Shown: positions 928-22,459 of the stretch, piece by piece | Numbering within the stretch: position 1 is the stretch's first letter | How the letters are laid out: each line of letters starts with the position of its first letter | From: a virus | Lineage: Duplodnaviria > Caudoviricetes | Virus record (IMG/VR): IMGVR_UViG_3300035208_006985 | DNA: 64,000 nt | Reading direction: 5' to 3' (one strand) | Program-made: the position numbers and the translations under genes | The notes under the pieces: generated by a model | The model's input: only the letters and a program-made list of their open reading frames with translations | Database searches by the model: none | Told to the model about the DNA's origin: nothing

Positions 928-1008
928 TGTTTTAATCCTTATAATTATATTATTGATTCTGACATACTATAAATACTTCTATCTGGTGTAGGCATTGTTT
1001 TAATCCTT
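884..1008. repeat. 57-bp direct repeat (884-940, 952-1008), one mismatch
   Basis: attgattctgacatact(g/a)taaatacttctatctggtgtaggcattgttttaatcctt occurs twice with an 11-bp spacer. It covers the RBS and first 14 codons of the 1..927 gene. Confidence 0.95.
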
Positions 1009-1010
1009 TA

Positions 1011-1101
1011 TTGACACCCCCATGCCATTAAGCATAGGATTCTTATACTACGCATTGGCTAAAGCACCATACGTTGTCGTATAAAGGCTCTGCCCGAGCC
1101 C
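1011..1101 (-). ncRNA. TnpB omegaRNA scaffold / IS200-IS605 right end (tnpB1); 5' boundary approximate
   Basis: Minus strand GGGCTC-GGGCA-GAGCCT hairpin, TTATAC...GTATAA stem, CCTATGC...GCATGGG hairpin, ending GTGTCAA as in IS605-type right ends. Confidence 0.7.
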
Positions 1102-2169
1102 AAGTATATTAATTGCTGCATTATGATCCCTATCTAAAACTAAACCACAATAGGGACAACAGTGAATACGTTCTGCTAAAGTTTTTTGAACTTTTTCACC
1201 ACAAGCAGAACATCTTTGTGAAGTTACATTAGGATTTACTTTCACTACTTCCCTACCAGCCTCTTCCGCTTTGTAAGAAAGCATTTGAAAGAATTGACCC
1301 CAAGAACTGTCCTGAATAGACCTTGAAAGATGTCTATTTTTAATCATATTATTTATTTGTAAATTTTCTATATAAATTTTCTTATTGTTTTCTATGTAAT
1401 GATTAGCAACTTTATGAAGATAATCTTTACGTTGGTTATTAATCTTTTCATAAGTCTTAGCAACCTGAAGCCTTGCTTCTTTTCTTCTATTAGAACCTTT
1501 TACTCTTCGGGAAAGCTTTCGTTGTTTAACCCTAAGTTCTTTAAGAAACTTTTTCAAAAACATGGGATTATTAACTTTATTCCCTTCAGAATCTACAAGG
1601 AAAGATTTTATCCCTACATCCAAACCAATTTCTTTTGTGGTTTCTGAAAACTGTTTTTTTGGGACTTCATCACAGGAAAAAGAAACAAACCATTTTCCTG
1701 TGGAATTTCTATAAATTGTAACAGTTTTAATCTTGCCTTCAATCGGTCTGGAAAGAAACAATTTTAATCTTCCAATCTTAGCAAGATGTAAATATCTTCC
1801 CTCAAGTTTCCAACCACTTTGTTTTAACGTGAAAGAATTATACCTGTCTTTAGATTTGAATCTTGGGAATCCTGGGGTTCCTCCGTGTTTAACCCTTTTA
1901 AAAAATGCTTGATAGGCTTTATCAAGTCTTTCTATAACATCCTGCAAACATTGAGAACCAACTTGTGCAAATTCAGGAAAAGCTTCTTTAAGTTCCGACA
2001 GTTGATTCATCTGATCATAGCAAGATATGGATTTCTTACTTTGTTTATAAATAGAAATTTTTTGTTCAAGTGCAAGATTGTAGAGTATACGACACTGCTC
2101 AAGCGAAGCCGAACAACATACCTCTACATTTTTGGAAAGTTTAGCACTATATTGAAAGGTGCGTCTCAT
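1048..2169 (-). CDS. tnpB: TnpB RNA-guided endonuclease (tnpB1), no tnpA nearby
   Basis: RuvC motifs GLDVG, IENL, DRDHNAAINI; CSAC/CPYC Zn finger; GFPRFK. Probable start is the ATG at 2169 (track: 2196). Confidence 0.93.
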   Translation of the reverse strand: MRRTFQYSAKLSKNVEVCCSASLEQCRILYNLALEQKISIYKQSKKSISCYDQMNQLSELKEAFPEFAQVGSQCLQDVIERLDKAYQAFFKRVKHGGTPGFPRFKSKDRYNSFTLKQSGWKLEGRYLHLAKIGRLKLFLSRPIEGKIKTVTIYRNSTGKWFVSFSCDEVPKKQFSETTKEIGLDVGIKSFLVDSEGNKVNNPMFLKKFLKELRVKQRKLSRRVKGSNRRKEARLQVAKTYEKINNQRKDYLHKVANHYIENNKKIYIENLQINNMIKNRHLSRSIQDSSWGQFFQMLSYKAEEAGREVVKVNPNVTSQRCSACGEKVQKTLAERIHCCPYCGLVLDRDHNAAINILGLGQSLYTTTYGALANA

Positions 2170-6585: not shown

Positions 6586-6615
6586 TTGTTTTTCTATAAA
6601 ATTTTAGTATATATT
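6586..6615 (+). promoter_or_regulatory. tnpB2 promoter TTGTTT-N18-TATATT
   Basis: Conserved with 12032..12061 upstream of tnpB3. Confidence 0.7.
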
Positions 6616-6641
6616 GTTTAATCGTTACCAGGAACAGTAAA

Positions 6642-7790
6642 TTGATTAAAACTTATAAATTCAGAGCTTATACTAATAAAGCTACAGAAATTCAAACTAA
6701 TGTAGTCCTTGAGCTTTGTAGACAGATGTATAATTTGGCTCTTGAACAAAGAATAATGGTTTATAAGCAAAATAAAAAGTCTGTTTCTTTTTATGATCAA
6801 AATAAACAGCTTACCGAGTTTAAAAAAGAATTTACACAATTTAAACAAGTGCCTTCTCAAGCTTTGGAAAATGTTATTGATAGACTTGATAAAGCTTATC
6901 AAAACTTTTTTAGAAGAGTTAGAATAGGCGAAACCCCTGGATTTCCAAGATTTAAAGGTTATGAAAGATATGACTCTTTTACATTGAGACAAGGTTGTGG
7001 ATACAAACTTGAAAATTCTAACCTTATCCTTAGTAAAATTGGAACCTTTAAACTTAAACTTCATCGTCAAATCCCTTTAGAAGCTAAAATTAAAACTGTT
7101 ACTATTACCAGAAAAAACAATAAATGGTTTGTTTGTTTTTGCTGTGATAACATTATACCAAAAATTCTTCCTAAAGTCAATAGGTCTATAGGCATAGATG
7201 TAGGTTGTGAAAGCTTCCTTACAGATTCCAATGGGCTTAAGGTAGAAAACCCTAGATTTCTTAATAAATCTACTGAAAGAATTACTAAACTTCAACAAAA
7301 ACTTGAAAAACAACTTAAAGGATCTAATAGGAGAAAGAAAACTAAACTTCTCTTGGCTAAAAAGCACGAAAAAGTATTTAACCAAAGATTGGATTTCCAA
7401 CATAAAGTTGCAAAGCACTATGTTGATAGCTATGATACTATTTGCCATGAAAAGATGAATTCCTTTAAAAGTTTTACTAAACTCAATCGAAGTATGAGAG
7501 ATGTTAGCTGGTTTAGGTTCTTTGATATTTTGCAAGCCAAAGCGGAAGAAGCTGGGCGTACAATAGTTAAAGTGCCTGCCAAAAACACTTCTCAACAATG
7601 TAGTAAGTGCGGAGAGATGGTTAAAAAAGATTTGTCTGTTAGAATTCACTCTTGCCCTCATTGTAAACTTACTTTAGATAGAGATTTAAATGCTGCTTTA
7701 AATATTTTAAGGCTTGGGATGAGCCTACAAGACCCTACCTTTCCTGGTAATGACTGTCTTGTGAAATTTGATGATTTAATCATTAATTAA
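6642..7790 (+). CDS. tnpB: TnpB RNA-guided endonuclease (tnpB2), TTG start
   Basis: MIKTYKFR N-terminus, GIDVG, CHEKM, DRDLNAALNI, CSKC/CPHC; close paralog of tnpB3. Confidence 0.93.
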   Translation: MIKTYKFRAYTNKATEIQTNVVLELCRQMYNLALEQRIMVYKQNKKSVSFYDQNKQLTEFKKEFTQFKQVPSQALENVIDRLDKAYQNFFRRVRIGETPGFPRFKGYERYDSFTLRQGCGYKLENSNLILSKIGTFKLKLHRQIPLEAKIKTVTITRKNNKWFVCFCCDNIIPKILPKVNRSIGIDVGCESFLTDSNGLKVENPRFLNKSTERITKLQQKLEKQLKGSNRRKKTKLLLAKKHEKVFNQRLDFQHKVAKHYVDSYDTICHEKMNSFKSFTKLNRSMRDVSWFRFFDILQAKAEEAGRTIVKVPAKNTSQQCSKCGEMVKKDLSVRIHSCPHCKLTLDRDLNAALNILRLGMSLQDPTFPGNDCLVKFDDLIIN

Positions 7791-7795
7791 TCCAC
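7709..7795 (+). ncRNA. tnpB2 omegaRNA scaffold (3' part); putative guide from 7796
   Basis: AGGCTTG/TGAGCCT hairpin, CAAGAC/GTCTTG stem, TTGATGAT/ATCATTAA hairpin; similarity to tnpB3 ends at TCCAC. Confidence 0.7.
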
Positions 7796-7892
7796 TTTAT
7801 GGTTTCCTCAAGCTCCCCAGATCCAAACAGCTCCTGGGTTATATGTTGAGAGGGAATTAAAAGGTTGGGGTTAGGGTATTTAAGAATTTTGG

Positions 7893-8138
7893 TCATAGAG
7901 TTGTATCGTAGAACTCTTTAATGGTTGAGAAGAACTCTTTAATGGTTGAGATATCTCTGAAACTAGACTCATTTATAACATAGTTTCTAAACTGTGATTC
8001 TGGCAATGCTTCTAGCATTTCACACAATACATCATCTGAAGCTATCATAATATACTGCAACAAAACTTGTTGTGCAACTTCTTTTGTAATATTACATGTA
8101 CTTTTTATACTCATTTTTATTTCCTTTTCTTTAGGCAA
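7893..8138 (-). CDS. Hypothetical protein
   Basis: ORF downstream of the promoter at 8159-8187; likely start MSIKS. Confidence 0.55.
   Translation of the reverse strand: MPKEKEIKMSIKSTCNITKEVAQQVLLQYIMIASDDVLCEMLEALPESQFRNYVINESSFRDISTIKEFFSTIKEFYDTTL
7910..7951. repeat. 21-bp perfect tandem duplication (in frame)
   Basis: agaactctttaatggttgaga x2, encoding STIKEFF-STIKEFY. Confidence 0.95.
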
Positions 8139-8158
8139 TTACAAATAATTCTATAATC

Positions 8159-8187
8159 AATATATAAAATTTGGACACTAAAGTCAA
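8159..8187 (-). promoter_or_regulatory. Promoter TTGACT-N17-TATATT
   Basis: Spacer TTAGT...AAATTTTA is shared with the promoter at 37649-37677. Confidence 0.65.
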
Positions 8188-8685
8188 TCAAACTCGCCAA
8201 GAAATTTCACCCACAACTTGCAAAAGTGTTTTGGTTAATTTCTTAGATACATACACAGGACAACCCATACAATAGCATACTACTATATCATTTAACATAA
8301 AGTATTGCTCCAGGGATTTTATTCTTTCTATATCAGCACCTGCCACCTTTAAAGCCTCCTGCAGCAAACCCCATTGTATTAGCATTGCTATGGGGCTTTT
8401 TTCTTCTTTTACTAAATATTGAAACTGGGCTAACATTGCCCCGGCTACTTTTTTATTCTGTTGGGTTAAATATAAGGCTATAGCATCCTGCTCAACCTGT
8501 GTAATCTCCTTAATAATGGGTATTTCAGAGGGAACAAATTCACATAGTTTACATAGGGGACAGATGGAGGAATTTATAGACCAAATATCACTATCTTCGT
8601 TATATGTATCTTGCTTGTAAGGGCAATGCTCTGGAGCCACTATGTAAGGTCCATAACCTATTTGTTTTAAAATTACTTTAATCAT
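8188..8685 (-). CDS. Hypothetical protein
   Basis: 165-aa ORF with AAGGA SD. Confidence 0.6.
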   Translation of the reverse strand: MIKVILKQIGYGPYIVAPEHCPYKQDTYNEDSDIWSINSSICPLCKLCEFVPSEIPIIKEITQVEQDAIALYLTQQNKKVAGAMLAQFQYLVKEEKSPIAMLIQWGLLQEALKVAGADIERIKSLEQYFMLNDIVVCYCMGCPVYVSKKLTKTLLQVVGEISWRV

Positions 8686-8846
8686 ATTTAAATCCTTAAA
8701 TTAACTTTATCAATCGGTATTAACCAAACCCATATTTATGTTATCATATAGCATGACCCAATGCCCGGCATAATCATGAACTACAATTTCTCTATTTATA
8801 GTACCCCCATTTAAATTTGGATCTCTACCATAACCTCTAAAAAATT

Positions 8847-9287
8847 TTATATAATACTTCTACCACGCAATTGCCCAGGTTCATTCCAAGTTGCTGTAAA
8901 CGCATCTCTATAAATTGATCTGGTTAACTCCTGTGATACATTAAAAATCTCTTTTGAAATTTTATCCCTATTATAAATTCTCATTCTTGCAGCCCCCTTC
9001 ACAATATCTAAAATGTGATCCACTAATTCTGAGGGTTCTGGTCCAAAAGTTAGCTTCAACTCATCACAAACTTGCATAACGGCATCATCGAAACTACTTA
9101 CACTCGTTAGATTTAAATCTTTCTTTTTTGGATAGGTTACAAGAACTTCTTGTGGCACAAAAGCTTTTATTTCTAATTCATAACCACACCTTTCATAACA
9201 TTGATTTATTCTAATATCAGTAACCCCCTCAATAACAGTGCCATCCTCAGTCTTAACTTTACCCTCCTCCACAACTAAATAGGACAT
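8847..9287 (-). CDS. Hypothetical protein
   Basis: ORF in a tightly packed minus-strand array. Confidence 0.6.
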   Translation of the reverse strand: MSYLVVEEGKVKTEDGTVIEGVTDIRINQCYERCGYELEIKAFVPQEVLVTYPKKKDLNLTSVSSFDDAVMQVCDELKLTFGPEPSELVDHILDIVKGAARMRIYNRDKISKEIFNVSQELTRSIYRDAFTATWNEPGQLRGRSII

Positions 9288-9288
9288 A

Positions 9289-9654
9289 TCAATTCTCCTC
9301 TTCTAAGTAAGGTTTAATAATTGAGGCTTCTTCATTATTAAAAACATGCTCACCTAACAAATGCTTATAGATTCTTCCTCCGAGCCCAAAAATACCGTTT
9401 CTCTGCATCTTGATTCCACTAGGAAATTTCTTGGACTTTTTAATAACATCCTTCCAAATAACTTCTGCTAATTTATCAGCCCTTTTAAGTTTCTTATCAC
9501 ATTCTGCACACAAAGAGGTATTAGTATTTGGCAGCTCATTAAACTCTTTCCGAGTAAAAGTCTTTCTTAATTGACAGCCGGAACAATTAAGTATATAATT
9601 ACCCTCAGGAACTGTGTCTATATCATTATTTATAAACATACCTTGATTAAACAT
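9289..9654 (-). CDS. Hypothetical Zn-finger protein
   Basis: CSGC...CAEC. Confidence 0.6.
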   Translation of the reverse strand: MFNQGMFINNDIDTVPEGNYILNCSGCQLRKTFTRKEFNELPNTNTSLCAECDKKLKRADKLAEVIWKDVIKKSKKFPSGIKMQRNGIFGLGGRIYKHLLGEHVFNNEEASIIKPYLEEEN

Positions 9655-9940
9655 TATTCTTTTCCTCTAGAAATTCTAAAACATCTGGATCATTTGTTGC
9701 ATCATACAATTTAATTTCTTTGGGTAAAAATTCTTTAGCAATATCACAATCCTTTCTATCAGGACAAGTATAACCACAATATAGCTCCCTAACTAAAAAC
9801 CCAAAAGTTTCTACAAAATCAATAGCCCCATGCTCTTCATCAGGTATATGTTTAAGCCACTTATGTACCGGAAGATTCCTTTGAATCACATAGGCTTGAA
9901 CCCTTAAAAGTTCTGATAATCTATTGCATTTAGAAGTCAT
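9647..9940 (-). CDS. Hypothetical Cys-cluster protein
   Basis: YCGYTCPDRKDC. Confidence 0.6.
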   Translation of the reverse strand: MTSKCNRLSELLRVQAYVIQRNLPVHKWLKHIPDEEHGAIDFVETFGFLVRELYCGYTCPDRKDCDIAKEFLPKEIKLYDATNDPDVLEFLEEKNNV

Positions 9941-9946
9941 AATAAC

Positions 9947-10132
9947 TCACACAGGTCTGTACCAATCATTGCCATCTACAATTTCCAGAATAAAATTGTA
10001 TGCTTTTTTAAACAAACAAATAGGATTGCACCATAAATGATAAGCTTTAAAGGGTTTCCTGCTCCAAAATAAACCCTCACATCTTTGGCATTGATTGTGA
10101 TAGTATTGTTTTATGTATTTATTTTTGATCAT
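9947..10132 (-). CDS. Small Cys/His protein, paralog of 4658..4849
   Basis: Shared YHNQCxRC...NPxC motif. Confidence 0.65.
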   Translation of the reverse strand: MIKNKYIKQYYHNQCQRCEGLFWSRKPFKAYHLWCNPICLFKKAYNFILEIVDGNDWYRPV

Positions 10133-10326
10133 TATTTTTCCCTCAATATTGTTCTGTATCTTTTTTTAAACAAACCTACTATGTGGGGGTTCTCTTGAAC
10201 AATCCAACCCCCTCTTTTACCATAATAAGATCTCATATACGTAAGTAAATGCTGAAAGTCCTTACATTCAAGTATACGAATGGCTTTACCATTTTTTATT
10301 TTTCTTTTTATCTTAATTTCAATCAT
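10132..10326 (-). CDS. Hypothetical basic protein
   Basis: AGGA SD; overlaps the next start. Confidence 0.55.
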   Translation of the reverse strand: MIEIKIKRKIKNGKAIRILECKDFQHLLTYMRSYYGKRGGWIVQENPHIVGLFKKRYRTILREK

Positions 10327-10353
10327 TTTAATTTCCTAATTTAATTATTTACA

Positions 10354-10427
10354 CGGACTATACAAGATTCTAACTTGTGACCCTGAAATTAGAAATTTCA
10401 TGCTCTATCCATCTGAACTAATAGTCC
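10354..10427 (-). tRNA. tRNA-Arg(TCT)
   Basis: GGACTAT/ATAGTCC acceptor, TGAAA-TTTCTAA-TTTCA anticodon arm, ACAAG-TTAGAAT-CTTGT T arm with a variant loop. Confidence 0.88.
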
Positions 10428-10437
10428 AAAACTTTAG

Positions 10438-10521
10438 CACACCGGGAAGGAGTCGAACCTTCAGTGGGATCACACCCGGAAGTTTTGGAGACTTCTGCAT
10501 TACCAGCAATGCTTCCGATGT
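10438..10521 (-). tRNA. tRNA-Trp(CCA) with long variable arm
   Basis: ACATCGG/CCGGTGT acceptor, G73, GAAGT-CTCCAAA-ACTTC anticodon arm, 16-nt variable region, GAAGG-TTCGACT-CCTTC T arm. Confidence 0.85.
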
Positions 10522-10553
10522 ATATTTGTATAAATTGTGAAACTATAGGGTCG

Positions 10554-11099
10554 TCACAAATCCCTATAAGCCCTTCCATTTTTAATATCTACTATTGTCG
10601 AATAGGAAACCTCAAAATCGTTACTCAATTCTTTTAAAGTTTTATATCTTACATTATTGAGAGCCACCTTAATAGCCTTAACTTTTTCTTGATTCAATTT
10701 TCTTCCAAATAACTTTTCAAAAGGCAACTTTGGTTTTACCTGAGGATCATATTTTGAACTATACCCATTAACATATCTGCCATTGCCCTTACCTTTTGCT
10801 TGCCTTCCTTTTCTTACTTTATCTTGAACATTATCATTTTGTGAACCACTAAACAAATGTTTTGGATTTACACAAGCTGGGGTATCACAACTATGACATA
10901 CGAGCTGTTCTTTTGTTAATACAACATTATTAGACAGTTCATAAGAAAGACGATGTGCTCTAATATGCCAATGCTTACCAGGATCCCTAAACTGAAAAAT
11001 CCCATATCCATCCTTACCAACTGTAGGACATAAAATACAATTTTCTGTATCAAAAACAAGGCTGTTAATCCTCTGAATTGCTTTTTCTCGTGCTGTCAT
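10554..11099 (-). CDS. Free-standing HNH homing endonuclease
   Basis: RAHRLSY...VCHSCDTPACVNPKHL...DN and a C-terminal HTH. ATG at 11099 with AAGGG SD; the track start at 11210 overlaps the tmRNA. Confidence 0.9.
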   Translation of the reverse strand: MTAREKAIQRINSLVFDTENCILCPTVGKDGYGIFQFRDPGKHWHIRAHRLSYELSNNVVLTKEQLVCHSCDTPACVNPKHLFSGSQNDNVQDKVRKGRQAKGKGNGRYVNGYSSKYDPQVKPKLPFEKLFGRKLNQEKVKAIKVALNNVRYKTLKELSNDFEVSYSTIVDIKNGRAYRDL

Positions 11100-11166
11100 A
11101 TAAACCCTTTCGTTAGAATTAGCATTACCCAAGCAACACCACGTGGAGGTTTCTAACAAGTTGCTT

Positions 11167-11562
11167 TGGACGTGCCGATTTTCGAAAATCGGGTCCGAGC
11201 AACAAGTCATAAAAAAGACTACAAGTTTAGTTTAATTTAATCTCTTTATCTATTATGCTAAATTAAACAACCACATAATAGATGCAATCTCTCTTTTTAC
11301 TACACCCAGCTGATTATTTTCTGAGTTCCGCATCCTCCACCATCTGACTTTCTTCTCTTACGGGAGTATTGCTACCCATCAGAACCGTAAACTTATAAGG
11401 TCTTAAACCATTACAAGTTCTTTATCAGCAAAGACTAAAGAACCGTCTTCACTGATAAAGGATGTCGATTTATGGTCGGCATTTTTAGTTTTCTAACTTT
11501 AAAGAGTCAGCAACTTACCTGCCTCTTCTACTATTGTTACCCGTCGAATCCAATTCACGCCC
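11167..11562 (-). ncRNA. ssrA: tmRNA
   Basis: 5' GGGCGTGAATTGGATTCGAC, 3' GGACCCGATTTTCGAAAATCGGCACGTCCA; GGGCGTG/CACGTCC acceptor with G3.U70; candidate tag frame 11480..11403. Confidence 0.88.
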
Positions 11563-11583
11563 GGTTATCAAAGAACAAAAATA

Positions 11584-11747
11584 GGTTTACAGGCAGTCCA
11601 ATTACTCGTAGTACAATTAAAGTACTATCGACCCACAACAAGGAAATAGGTATGGACATGGGGGCAGACCCGAACAATGCTTAGCTTAGCATATATCATT
11701 GTCCGTGTTCCTCGTTACCATGGCTCTAAGCTGCCTACCCGTAAACC
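11584..11747 (-). ncRNA. Unassigned multi-stem structured RNA (~164 nt)
   Basis: Closing stems GGTTTAC/GTAAACC and AGGCAG/CTGCCT; inner AACGAGGAA/TTCCTTGTT, CGGACAATG/CATTGTTCG, TAGTAC/GTACTA. Strand inferred from the cluster. Confidence 0.6.
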
Positions 11748-11767
11748 AAATTTCAAAAAAACAAATA

Positions 11768-11834
11768 GACAGGATGTGCTTACCTTATCATAATCCAAAA
11801 GAATTATAATAACTCGGAGCTTCACCATCCTGTC
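11768..11834 (-). ncRNA. 67-nt long hairpin (small RNA or terminator/processing stem)
   Basis: GACAGGATG/CATCCTGTC, GCT/AGC, TTATTATAAT/ATTATGATAA; T-rich 3' flank. Confidence 0.5.
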
Positions 11835-12006
11835 ATTTTATTACACCTGCAACTATTAACCATCCAACTATTAACATAAAAAACACAAGTATAAATATAA
11901 TTGCATCAAATACATTATTTTTAGGACGTCTTTTATATAAATCGACAAGTGTCCTAGACCATAAAAGCGTAGATGCCACAATAAATATTCTAATTAAAGT
12001 TTCCAT
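11833..12006 (-). CDS. Small 57-aa two-TM membrane protein
   Basis: METLIRIFIVASTLLW...AIIFILVFFMLIVGWLIVAGVIK; not in the track. Confidence 0.5.
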   Translation of the reverse strand: METLIRIFIVASTLLWSRTLVDLYKRRPKNNVFDAIIFILVFFMLIVGWLIVAGVIK

Positions 12007-12031
12007 TTTATACTTGATCCCCTTCTAATAC

Positions 12032-12061
12032 TTGTTTTTATCTAAAATTTTACTATATATT
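12032..12061 (+). promoter_or_regulatory. tnpB3 promoter TTGTTT-N18-TATATT
   Basis: Conserved with 6586..6615. Confidence 0.7.
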
Positions 12062-12089
12062 ATATGTAAGAACTATTGAGAACAATACT

Positions 12090-13235
12090 TTGATTAAAAC
12101 TTATAAATTTAGGGCTTATCCTAACAAAGCTACAGAAGCTCAGACTAGTATAATCCTTGAACTCTGCAGGCAAATGTATAATTTGGCTCTTGAGCAAAGA
12201 ATAATGGTTTATAAACAAAGTAAAAAATCTTTGACTTGTTATGATCAAATTAATCAACTTCCAGAATTTAAAAAAGAATTTCCTCAATTTAAACAGGTTC
12301 CTTCCCAAGCTTTTGAAAATGTAATTGATAGACTTGATAAAGCTTATCAAGGCTTCTTTAGAAGAATAAAAACAGGTGAAACTGCAGGTTTCCCAAGATT
12401 CAAAGGTTATCAAAGATATGATTCTTTTACACTGAGACAATGTGGATATAAACTTGAAAAATCTAATTTGATTATTAAGAAAATTGGAACTTTTAAACTT
12501 AAACTTCATAGGTCCATTCCTTCAGAAGCTAAAATTAAAACTGTTACTATTATCAGAAAAAACAATAAATGGTTTATTTGTTTTTGCTGTGATTGTATTA
12601 TACCAAAAGTTCTTACTAAAGTCAATAGGTCTATAGGCATAGATGTGGGTTGCGAAAGCTTTTTGACAGATTCTAATGGACTTAAAGTAGAAAACCCAAG
12701 ATTTCTTAATAAATCTACTGAAAGAATTACTCAGCTTAGCCAAAAATTGTCTAAACAAAAGATGGGATCTAACAGAAGAAAGAAAACAAGACTTCTTCTG
12801 GCAAAGAAGCATGAAAAAGTATCTAATCAACGCTTGGACTTTCAACATAAAGTTGCAAAGCATTATGTTAAACACTATGATTTGATTTGCCATGAAAAAA
12901 TGCAAGCTTTTAAAAGTTTTAGAGGTCTTAATCGAAGTATGAGAGATATGGCTTGGTTTCAGTTCTTTGATATACTTTCTTACAAAGCGGAAGAAGCTGG
13001 TAGGAAAATAGTTAAGGTTCCTGCCAAAAACACCTCTCAGCAATGCTCGGGATGTGGTGAAATAGTGCTCAAAGATTTGTCTGTTAGAATCCACTCTTGC
13101 CCTCATTGTAAACTTACTTTAGATAGAGATTTAAATGCAGCACTTAATATTTTAAGGCTTGGAACGAGCCTACAAGACCCTACCTATCTCAATAGTTCTA
13201 GTCTTGTGAAATTTAATATTTTAGTTGTTGAATAG
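12090..13235 (+). CDS. tnpB: TnpB RNA-guided endonuclease (tnpB3), TTG start
   Basis: GIDVG, CHEKM, DRDLNAALNI, CSGC/CPHC; close paralog of tnpB2. Confidence 0.93.
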   Translation: MIKTYKFRAYPNKATEAQTSIILELCRQMYNLALEQRIMVYKQSKKSLTCYDQINQLPEFKKEFPQFKQVPSQAFENVIDRLDKAYQGFFRRIKTGETAGFPRFKGYQRYDSFTLRQCGYKLEKSNLIIKKIGTFKLKLHRSIPSEAKIKTVTIIRKNNKWFICFCCDCIIPKVLTKVNRSIGIDVGCESFLTDSNGLKVENPRFLNKSTERITQLSQKLSKQKMGSNRRKKTRLLLAKKHEKVSNQRLDFQHKVAKHYVKHYDLICHEKMQAFKSFRGLNRSMRDMAWFQFFDILSYKAEEAGRKIVKVPAKNTSQQCSGCGEIVLKDLSVRIHSCPHCKLTLDRDLNAALNILRLGTSLQDPTYLNSSSLVKFNILVVE

Positions 13236-13240
13236 TCCAC
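13154..13240 (+). ncRNA. tnpB3 omegaRNA scaffold (3' part); putative guide from 13241
   Basis: Same three stems as tnpB2, with a diverged but still pairing terminal hairpin ATTTAATA/TGTTGAAT; ends TCCAC. Confidence 0.7.
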
Positions 13241-13276
13241 CAAATAAGTCAAGCTTAAAATAGGTTCATAACATTA

Positions 13277-22113: not shown

Positions 22114-22459
22114 CTATTTATTTCTTATTTTTTCATCCAATTCTTTACACTCATTCAAAACAACATTTATGTCATTTACTCTAATATTATAATCTTCCAA
22201 AAATTCTTTAGGAACAAATTGCTGTAAATATAATATGCAATCTCTTTGCTTAGTGAACTACCCCTGCCTAAAGGCAAAGGCTTCTTGGGTCAAACGAATG
22301 AGATTACTTCCTCTATTCTCACCAAGCGTTAATTTCCTACGTTCCATAGGTATTTTGGTCCTGTTATCTAAAAGCACTATCTGTAACCCCCACCTAAAGG
22401 AAGGAGATTTATTTAGTTAAATCGGTTAAAGTTAGACATAGAAGAATCCCTAAAAACAT
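22114..22459 (-). pseudogene. 60-aa gene interrupted by the mini-element
   Basis: Deleting 22253-22415 gives a 183-nt open frame MFLGILLCLTLTDLTKQRDC...KIRNK*. Confidence 0.7.
22253..22415 (-). mobile_element. Non-autonomous IS200/IS605-type mini-element encoding an omegaRNA
   Basis: Left hairpin ATCTCCTTCCTTTAGGTGGGGGT; right end GAAGCCTTTGCCTTTAGGCAGGGGTAGTTCAC; internal omegaRNA-like CCTATGGAACGTAGGAAATTAACGCTTGG; inserted 3' of TTAAC. Confidence 0.8.

Follow-up and report, generated by a model that had tools for sequence, protein, structure and literature searches.

An omegaRNA scaffold loop in phage-borne tnpB elements is complementary to the ribosome-binding site of its own gene and may mask it

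How can the 3′ end of one transcript serve both as translated sequence and as a region that folds into a guide RNA? The question is raised by tnpB2 and tnpB3, two paralogous genes in a 64,000-nucleotide (nt) stretch of viral DNA (Duplodnaviria; Caudoviricetes; IMG/VR record IMGVR_UViG_3300035208_006985), the whole of which is called the window below. Both genes belong to tnpB-only (IS1341-type) TnpB/omegaRNA elements of the IS200/IS605 family that are carried by a large phage. The open reading frame (ORF) of these elements spans the entire omegaRNA scaffold module, and because translation runs through the scaffold, the translated and omegaRNA-precursor states of the transcript conflict. Few layers of control over TnpB expression are known: Arc repressors, which act on IS605 promoters (bioRxiv 10.64898/2026.09.24.754181), processing of the mRNA, and inhibition of cleavage by a segment of the mRNA (PMC10278001). 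Archaeal sense-overlapping tnpB RNAs have levels opposite to those of the gene (PMC4615843). Here we describe complementarity between a loop in stem 3 of the omegaRNA scaffold and the leader of the same gene, and we argue that the loop probably masks its own ribosome-binding site (RBS) by RNA-RNA pairing, in cis, in trans or both.

The tnpB3 protein is 83% identical to that of tnpB2, and near their 3′ ends the two genes share the identical flanks CAAGACCCTACCT and GTCTTGTGAAATTT. The 15-mers enclosed by these flanks differ, being TTCCTGGTAATGACT in tnpB2 and ATCTCAATAGTTCTA in tnpB3 (coordinates in Table 1); about 10 of their 15 positions are unlike, next to 13–14 nt of unchanged sequence on the flanks. 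As the initial annotation had reported, each 15-mer is complementary over 13 bp to the leader of its own gene, with one G.U pair in tnpB2 and Watson-Crick pairs throughout in tnpB3. The paired leader segment of tnpB2 contains an AGGA resembling a Shine-Dalgarno (SD) sequence. When the leaders were shuffled, 0–1 of 300 trials reached the observed helix score for the two genes (tnpB2, p about 0.003; tnpB3, 0/300). Within the isolated 3′ module the predicted unpaired probability of the tnpB2 15-mer averages 0.66.

The context of the 15-mers is that of a guide-RNA scaffold. The last 100 nt of every member of the group comprise one module, made up of hairpin A, a 7-bp stem B with a mostly unpaired loop of 20–27 nt, and a terminal hairpin with a UUUA-type loop; the module ends in ...CAC, where similarity between copies stops. 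The last ~86 nt of each element constitute a compact omegaRNA scaffold (stem 1, stem 3 and stem 4) that is followed by the guide, and the homologous right ends in relatives read GTAGTTCAC. A CAAGAC/GTCTTG stem had been proposed to close the loop; folding extends it to 7 bp, ACAAGAC/GTCTTGT, around a 22-nt loop in tnpB2. Stem B covaries across the clade, occurring as ACAAGAC/GTCTTGT, AAGTGAC/GTCACTT, AAGGGAT/ATCCCTT, TCAGGAC/GTCCTGA and TTCGGAA/TTCCGAG. The segment complementary to the leader (the anti-leader, 11–16 nt) occupies the 3′ half of the loop and carries an anti-SD motif (such as CUCC, UCUC or UUCCU) at its 5′ end; its target takes in the SD region together with the 8–10 nt lying upstream. 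In nearly all members a linker of 7–14 nt precedes it and 0–2 nt separate it from the 3′ arm of stem B; in one, L251, it is on the 5′ side. The GGAU loop of tnpB2 hairpin A can pair with AUCC at -6 to -3, giving a candidate pseudoknot between the stem-1 loop and -5 to -3, which is only tentative because it covaries in many members and fails in several (L172, L174 and L178). Searches against Rfam matched no omegaRNA family.

The stem assignments follow from comparison with ISDra2, whose omegaRNA has a stem 4 with a UUUA loop at -20 to -17, a stem 3a formed by a 7-bp duplex, and a pseudoknot involving -5 to -3 (Nakagawa et al., 2023, PMC10097598). The elements described here likewise have a 7-bp stem 3a about 40–75 nt before the guide, a UUUA stem 4, a candidate pseudoknot and a scaffold that overlaps a non-conserved C-terminal tail of the ORF (residues ~360–382), although at about 86 nt their scaffold is shorter. 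By this positional mapping the anti-leader loop sits where ISDra2 has stem 3b, and the distal part of stem 3 is replaced by an open loop. Stem 3b of ISDra2 is a paired extension with no assigned role; the complex shows it as disordered, and editing activity rose when it was deleted (PMC10097598). Because stem 3b is disordered there and its loss tolerated, the anti-leader loop is expected, by analogy, to be exposed and to protrude from the TnpB complex.

Searching for loop-leader complementarity in homologous loci showed that the feature extends well beyond the two genes. RNAduplex energies over all loci were dropped as a measure; large internal loops and GC differences between loci drowned the signal, and ungapped-helix scoring with leader shuffles was adopted for that reason. 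A column-based count of the long-range helix from MAFFT/RNAalifold alignments of the 3′ 250 nt was also unusable because the variable loop was misaligned, and each locus was therefore analysed separately. A leader/loop helix of 11–16 bp is present in 15 of 19 elements at 59–100% protein identity, which contribute 14 distinct sequence pairs. The cognate helix score averaged 28.6, compared with 14.3 +/- 3.6 for non-cognate combinations (n = 16 elements), and none of 20,000 permutations of the leader assignment among these 16 elements reached the observed sum. For members with helices of at least 11 bp, no more than 2% of single-locus shuffles matched the observed score.

The pairs themselves illustrate the extent of covariation. 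Two further close copies lie outside the window on the same contig: L003 has leader AGAATTATCGAGAGTA and loop TATTCTCGATAGTTCT (16 bp, two G.U), and L004 has ACTATTGTTGAGA and TCTCAACAATAGT (13 bp). The feature is also found in relatives, at 59–84% protein identity, that come from other contigs of phage or metagenome origin. A 150-kb phage contig with terminal repeats carries two copies, one with ACACTATTTGGAGAAA/TTTCTCCAAATAGTGT (16 bp) and the other with GAAACAATAGGAG/CTCCTATTGTTTC (13 bp). Additional members on metagenome contigs (L172, L174, L176, L178, L180, L181 and L184) were found through protein homologues. The L172 pair is GAACAAATTGGAG/CTCCAATTTGTTC, and L174 differs from it by a single compensatory change, in which A>G on the leader side is met by T>C on the loop side; L090 and L178 show the same kind of pattern. 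The pairs in L176 and L180 are AGTTAGTGAGA/TCTCACTAACT and AACTACCTGGAG/CTCCAGGTAGTT, respectively, and helices of 14 bp are formed in both L178 and L181. The helix of L184 (AGGATACGGAA/TTCCGTATCCT) extends to the start codon, and L251, recovered in a scan of viral contigs, has 15 bp at -15 to -1.

The helix lies between -21 and -5 in most elements, at -10 to 0 in L184 and at -15 to -1 in L251. In every paired element it overlaps the SD region, in agreement with the proposal that the target covers the likely RBS. Because the helix shifts together with the SD in L184 and L251, its location follows the ribosome site and is not set by a constant spacing to the end of the element. Matched pairs have also been maintained through recombination: the close copies are mosaic. 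In tnpB3 and L004 an identical stretch of about 520 nt runs to the loop and gives way to divergent sequence after it, and tnpB3 and L003 are nearly identical in part of the 5′ region, yet a matched leader/loop pair is kept in every one of the copies. What sets tnpB3 and L004 apart in the two segments is a pair of trinucleotide duplications that complement each other, of TTG in the leader and of CAA in the loop.

More distant TnpBs (36–58% identity) gave no clear leader/omegaRNA helix, with a cognate score of 16.3 against 14.9 for non-cognate combinations and 266 of 20,000 permutations reaching the observed sum. The homologous position holds a closed hairpin in the genes of these proteins, as it does in tnpB1. 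For tnpB1 this is the self-paired hairpin that had been noted earlier (ATACG-ACAA-CGTAT, 1082..1069, minus strand), and no anti-leader loop is present. Five loci at 47–57% identity (L092, L094, L041, L096 and L101) have a recurrent 7–9 bp match of the SD region to the 5′ arm and UUUA loop of stem 4, for example TAAAGGC/GCCTTTA and TAAAGAGCG/CGCTCTTTA; the match could be genuine or could result from the likeness of the left and right ends, and the signal is weak overall. The window also contains a 163-bp omegaRNA-only mini-element (22253-22415, minus strand), bounded on either side by a CCTTTAGG-type hairpin, which has a scaffold of TnpB type and ends in GTAGTTCAC. In it stem 3b is closed and has the loop AUAGAGGAAGUAA, rich in purines; a search for a match of the mini-element to any tnpB leader found only background complementarity. 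This single case is in line with a function of the pairing that is linked to the protein-coding gene, not to transposition.

Folding calculations indicate that the pairing is thermodynamically plausible. When a 44-nt leader was co-folded with the omegaRNA, the minimum free energy (MFE) structure contained the intermolecular helix in 13/13 elements, with a net gain of 9–18 kcal/mol. In folds of the whole transcript (~1.19 kb), the MFE structure included the corresponding 1.1-kb long-range helix in seven of eight elements, with pair probabilities of 0.93–1.00; for tnpB2, 12 of the 13 pairs were present at a mean pair probability of 0.94. Substitution of a non-cognate leader reduced predicted SD-to-omegaRNA pairing from 0.70–0.90 to 0.01–0.21 in three of four swaps, and the remaining swap retained 0.67 through the common anti-SD core.

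Of the two mechanisms put forward in the initial annotation, pairing of the loop with the mRNA 5′ end to block translation appears the better supported, given that the SD is always covered, that 14 pairs covary and that the helix is predicted in the full-length transcript. If leader and loop are both transcribed, the loop would hide the RBS and limit TnpB translation. Acting in cis, pairing could take place once the 3′ end of the 1.2-kb transcript is made; ribosomes would then be cleared from the ORF tail that overlaps the scaffold, the scaffold could fold, and the transcript would be switched from a translated mRNA to an omegaRNA precursor. Acting in trans, processed omegaRNA, either free or in the TnpB complex, might pair with newly made mRNA and provide negative feedback. 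What the analysis shows is the complementarity with its covariation, SD coverage, loop context and thermodynamic plausibility; that both partners are transcribed, that translation is affected and how the two routes are balanced we can only infer. Such control is proposed to be largely copy-specific because the pairing takes in variable bases beside the SD. The claim of orthogonal feedback for each copy holds in part: tnpB2 is distinct from the other three close copies, but the tnpB3 leader forms 14 bp, G.U included, with the L003 loop, and the anti-SD core is common. An extended version, in which the omegaRNA has a dual function as DNA guide within the complex and as a repressor, through its stem-3 loop, of its own copy's mRNA in trans, is conceivable but doubtful. 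It would create one insulated feedback loop per copy, with selection for orthogonality driving loop and leader apart much as happens in plasmid antisense incompatibility determinants.

Several observations weigh against RBS masking. Co-folding predicts that the full helix opens stem 3a (the 7-bp stem B), and pairing and correct scaffold folding may therefore compete. The tnpB3 helix has a probability of just 0.28 in the full-length fold. Two clade members, L183 and L250, have small closed hairpins in place of the open loop, and L175 and L182 retain only 8 and 9 bp, respectively. Wobble polarity is equivocal, with G.U extension of the helix on the sense strand at three loci and on the antisense strand at three; a candidate rule that all mismatches are sense-strand G.U pairs broke down when more elements were included. 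For the complementary TTG and CAA duplications, a templated DNA mechanism is an alternative origin to selection. L175 (JGI 3300043540, Ga0453685_008386) has a loop identical to that of the phage copy L089 together with a leader of another lineage, and an 8-bp anti-SD match is left; because of this combination it seems to have arisen by natural recombination that left leader and loop mismatched.

The predicted opening of stem 3a also suits a reversal of the roles, in which the mRNA leader would act as an anti-omegaRNA that binds the stem-3 loop, opens stem 3a and stops TnpB assembly or cutting during transcription of the transposon, with the SD overlap incidental or a second effect. ISDra2 stems 2 and 3a contact the RuvC domain (PMC10097598), and an AmaTnpB mRNA segment complementary to the omegaRNA lowers DNA cleavage in vitro, for which disruption of the scaffold was proposed (PMC10278001). 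That inhibitory region is nevertheless within the coding sequence (CDS) and not in the leader, and the helix in our elements always includes the SD and moves with it in L184 and L251. In most members, the placement of the anti-leader beside the 3′ arm, following its linker, would permit stacking on an intact stem 3a. We consider an anti-omegaRNA leader unlikely. The absence of the feature from some clade members and from more distant TnpBs is what would be seen if the complementarity had no function and were a by-product of end formation or recombination between copies. The 14 distinct pairs, however, stay complementary over 59–100% identity on unrelated contigs and in unrelated environments, and both segments diverge much faster than their identical flanks and yet stay matched despite mosaic recombination, which makes a functionless origin very improbable.

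Two explanations place the complementarity in DNA. The leader and loop could be sub-terminal inverted repeats that form a single-stranded panhandle of the left and right ends during transposition or repair, with complementarity kept by templated correction and not by selection on the RNA. The IS200/IS605 family transposes via single-stranded DNA, and the two segments are set back from their respective ends by similar lengths (36 nt on the left and about 42 nt on the right in tnpB2). The equivocal wobble polarity is compatible with a panhandle, and the TTG/CAA duplications are what templated copying would give. The position of the pairing nonetheless follows the SD and start codon and not the ends, one partner is always in the loop of a covarying RNA stem, and the gene-less mini-element, which must also transpose, has ordinary end hairpins without such complementarity. 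No Y1 transposase gene is present on the contig, and we know of no end-to-end pairing of this type in the IS200/IS605 family. A panhandle is thus quite unlikely. The second mechanism of the initial annotation makes the loop an additional guide inside the RNA that recruits TnpB to its own promoter, with TAYTG as target-adjacent motif (TAM). Such recruitment to double-stranded promoter or leader DNA would repress transcription. RNA-guided self-repression is known for Cas9 with the long form of the tracrRNA, TldR repressors derive from TnpB, and in the four close copies the target follows shortly after the presumed -10 box. The neighbouring motif CA(G/A)TA, said to be conserved, is found in tnpB2, tnpB3 and L004 but is missing beside the target in L003, L089, L090 and other, more distant members, and it is unlike the TAM-like left flanks of the insertions (TTTGC, AATAC, AATAC and ATTAC). 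In relatives the promoter is further upstream while the target stays at the SD. The complementarity covers 11–16 nt in an internal hairpin loop, whereas TnpB reads a 3′-terminal guide after the pseudoknot (PMC10097598). Because the RuvC triad is intact, the protein is not expected to be nuclease-dead, and a full match would risk self-cleavage. We give this DNA-guide mechanism scarcely any credence, and masking of the RBS remains the reading that we favour.

Full-text searches of the literature found no description of pairing between an omegaRNA and an SD, and the finding is a variant of antisense or 5′-3′ translational control newly placed in a guide-RNA scaffold. The loop of the IS10/Tn10 RNA-OUT hairpin reportedly pairs with the 5′ end and RBS of RNA-IN, limits transposase translation and acts in trans (multicopy inhibition). 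It resembles the arrangement predicted here in that a transposon-encoded RNA loop acts on the RBS of the element's own mRNA, but RNA-OUT comes from the opposite strand and the regulator in our elements belongs to the guide-RNA scaffold. The complementarity of RNA-OUT comes free because it is read from the opposite strand of the same DNA; here 1.1 kb of the same strand separates the partners, which have to co-evolve. The icaR mRNA of Staphylococcus aureus is likewise said to pair an anti-SD at its 3′ end with its own SD over a long distance, blocking translation; its partner, though, is a cellular 3′ untranslated region (UTR) without a second job, copy-specific diversification or a ribonucleoprotein context. 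Within the same transposon superfamily, a 5′-UTR stem-loop and the art200 antisense RNA are reported to occlude the SD of IS200 tnpA after transcription; there the target is tnpA, and occlusion relies on a hairpin within the leader and an antisense RNA encoded in cis, with no part played by the guide RNA. Base-pairing cross-talk between a tnpB mRNA and its omegaRNA scaffold has been described for AmaTnpB, in which a complementary mRNA region inhibits DNA cleavage in vitro and negative feedback was proposed (Nety et al., 2023, PMC10278001). Its segment is in the CDS (nt 825–875) rather than over the leader and SD, the measured effect was on DNA cleavage, and the passages that deal with it report no covariation analysis.

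If correct, masking of its own gene's RBS by a scaffold would be a further, RNA-only layer of TnpB control, and it could explain how one transcript settles translation through its 3′ end versus folding of that end into a guide. The stem-3b position would be a natural site for a programmable RNA-binding loop. TnpB loci transferred to a heterologous system may also be expressed less well with their native leaders. The covariation supplies at least 14 natural specificities, which simple swaps could test.

Table 1. Features of the tnpB elements in the window (positions are those of the window)
Feature	Position	Strand	Description
tnpB1	1048..2169	-	likely ATG start at 2169; right end ...GTGTCAA
tnpB2 left end	6586..6641	+	TTGTTT (6586-6591), 18 nt, TATATT (6610-6615), then short leader; similarity among the four copies begins here
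tnpB2 leader segment	6622..6634	+	TCGTTACCAGGAA, -20..-8 from TTG; pairs with 7741-7753, 13 bp including one G.U
tnpB2 ORF	6642..7790	+	382 aa, TTG start; Pfam HTH_OrfB_IS605, OrfB_IS605, Cas12f1-like_TNB
tnpB2 hairpin A	7710..7726	+	AGGCTTGGGATGAGCCT, assigned stem 1; conserved in alignment fold and single folds
tnpB2 stem-loop B	7727..7762	+	assigned stem 3; 7-bp ACAAGAC/GTCTTGT, 22-nt loop = linker CCTACCT (7734-7740) + 15-mer (7741-7755)
tnpB2 anti-leader 15-mer	7741..7755	+	anti-SD UUCCU at 5′ end
tnpB2 terminal hairpin and right end	7768..7795	+	stem 4, U-rich UUUA-type loop about -20..-17; ...AATCCAC; guide would start at 7796
tnpB3 left end and leader	12032..12089	+	
tnpB3 leader segment	12069..12081	+	AGAACTATTGAGA, -21..-9 from TTG; pairs with 13188-13200, 13 Watson-Crick bp
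tnpB3 ORF	12090..13235	+	381 aa, TTG start; Pfam TnpB
tnpB3 scaffold	13155..13240	+	hairpin A 13155-13171, stem-loop B 13172-13207 (15-mer 13186-13200), terminal hairpin, ...AGTCCAC (13240)

The window is included whole in a contig of a metagenome bin. Gene content on this contig with matches to phage families includes a DNA polymerase, NrdD, GroEL, helicases, RtcB and an SbcC-like exonuclease; a transfer-messenger RNA (tmRNA) and two tRNAs are also encoded. Close homologues of the tnpB genes were found in none of 40 genomes of the same genus or order. Because of this phage-type content and the lack of close tnpB homologues in the related genomes, the contig probably represents a large phage, its genome at least 164 kb long, whose sequence was placed by binning in a bacterial metagenome-assembled genome. 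It carries four close tnpB copies (tnpB2, tnpB3, L003 and L004, the others at 80–83% identity to tnpB2) and tnpB1, at 54% identity to tnpB2. The products of tnpB2 and tnpB3 align with ISDra2 TnpB (8bf8/8h1j, E 5e-49) over residues 3–359; GIDVG, HEKM and DRD align to the ISDra2 catalytic positions and make up the D/E/D triad of RuvC, and the zinc-finger CxxC...CxxC is present. No match to the Y1 transposase (PF01797) was found on the contig, and four were found on other contigs of the bin; Y1 TnpA is not required for tnpB-only elements. Exact-pattern searches of the genome returned the left end and the right end of the close copies only four times each, in every case on this contig's plus strand. 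There are thus no orphan ends in the genome beyond the four full elements, and therefore no natural trans-only omegaRNA of the tnpB2/tnpB3 type in it. The left flanks of the four insertions suggest a W-T-R-C TAM-like motif (n = 4 only).

The shared TTGTTT-N18-TATATT promoter of the initial annotation is conserved as a sequence element in all four close copies. It is a weak consensus match that the promoter scan did not call, and for that reason the left end is only a putative promoter. An antisense promoter-like site is present inside tnpB2 (7180..7152, minus strand) and tnpB3 (12625..12597, minus strand), directed at the tnpB 5′ end. It consists of TTGACT, 17 nt and an extended -10 element, TG-n-TATAAT, and is near-consensus with 11/12 matches. 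This site could drive an antisense RNA over the leader, or it could be merely conserved coding sequence. About 115 nt downstream of the tnpB2 right end, at 7910-7951, is a tandem perfect duplication of the 21-mer AGAACTCTTTAATGGTTGAGA (two copies), and between tnpB2 and tnpB3 are the tmRNA gene (Rfam 52 bits) and the two tRNA genes (10354-11554, minus strand). A 57-nt direct repeat (884-940 and 952-1008, minus strand; 98% identical, spacing 68) adjoins the tnpB1 right end (~1011); it duplicates the RBS and first codons of the neighbouring gene, and its proximal copy would be the tnpB1 guide region.

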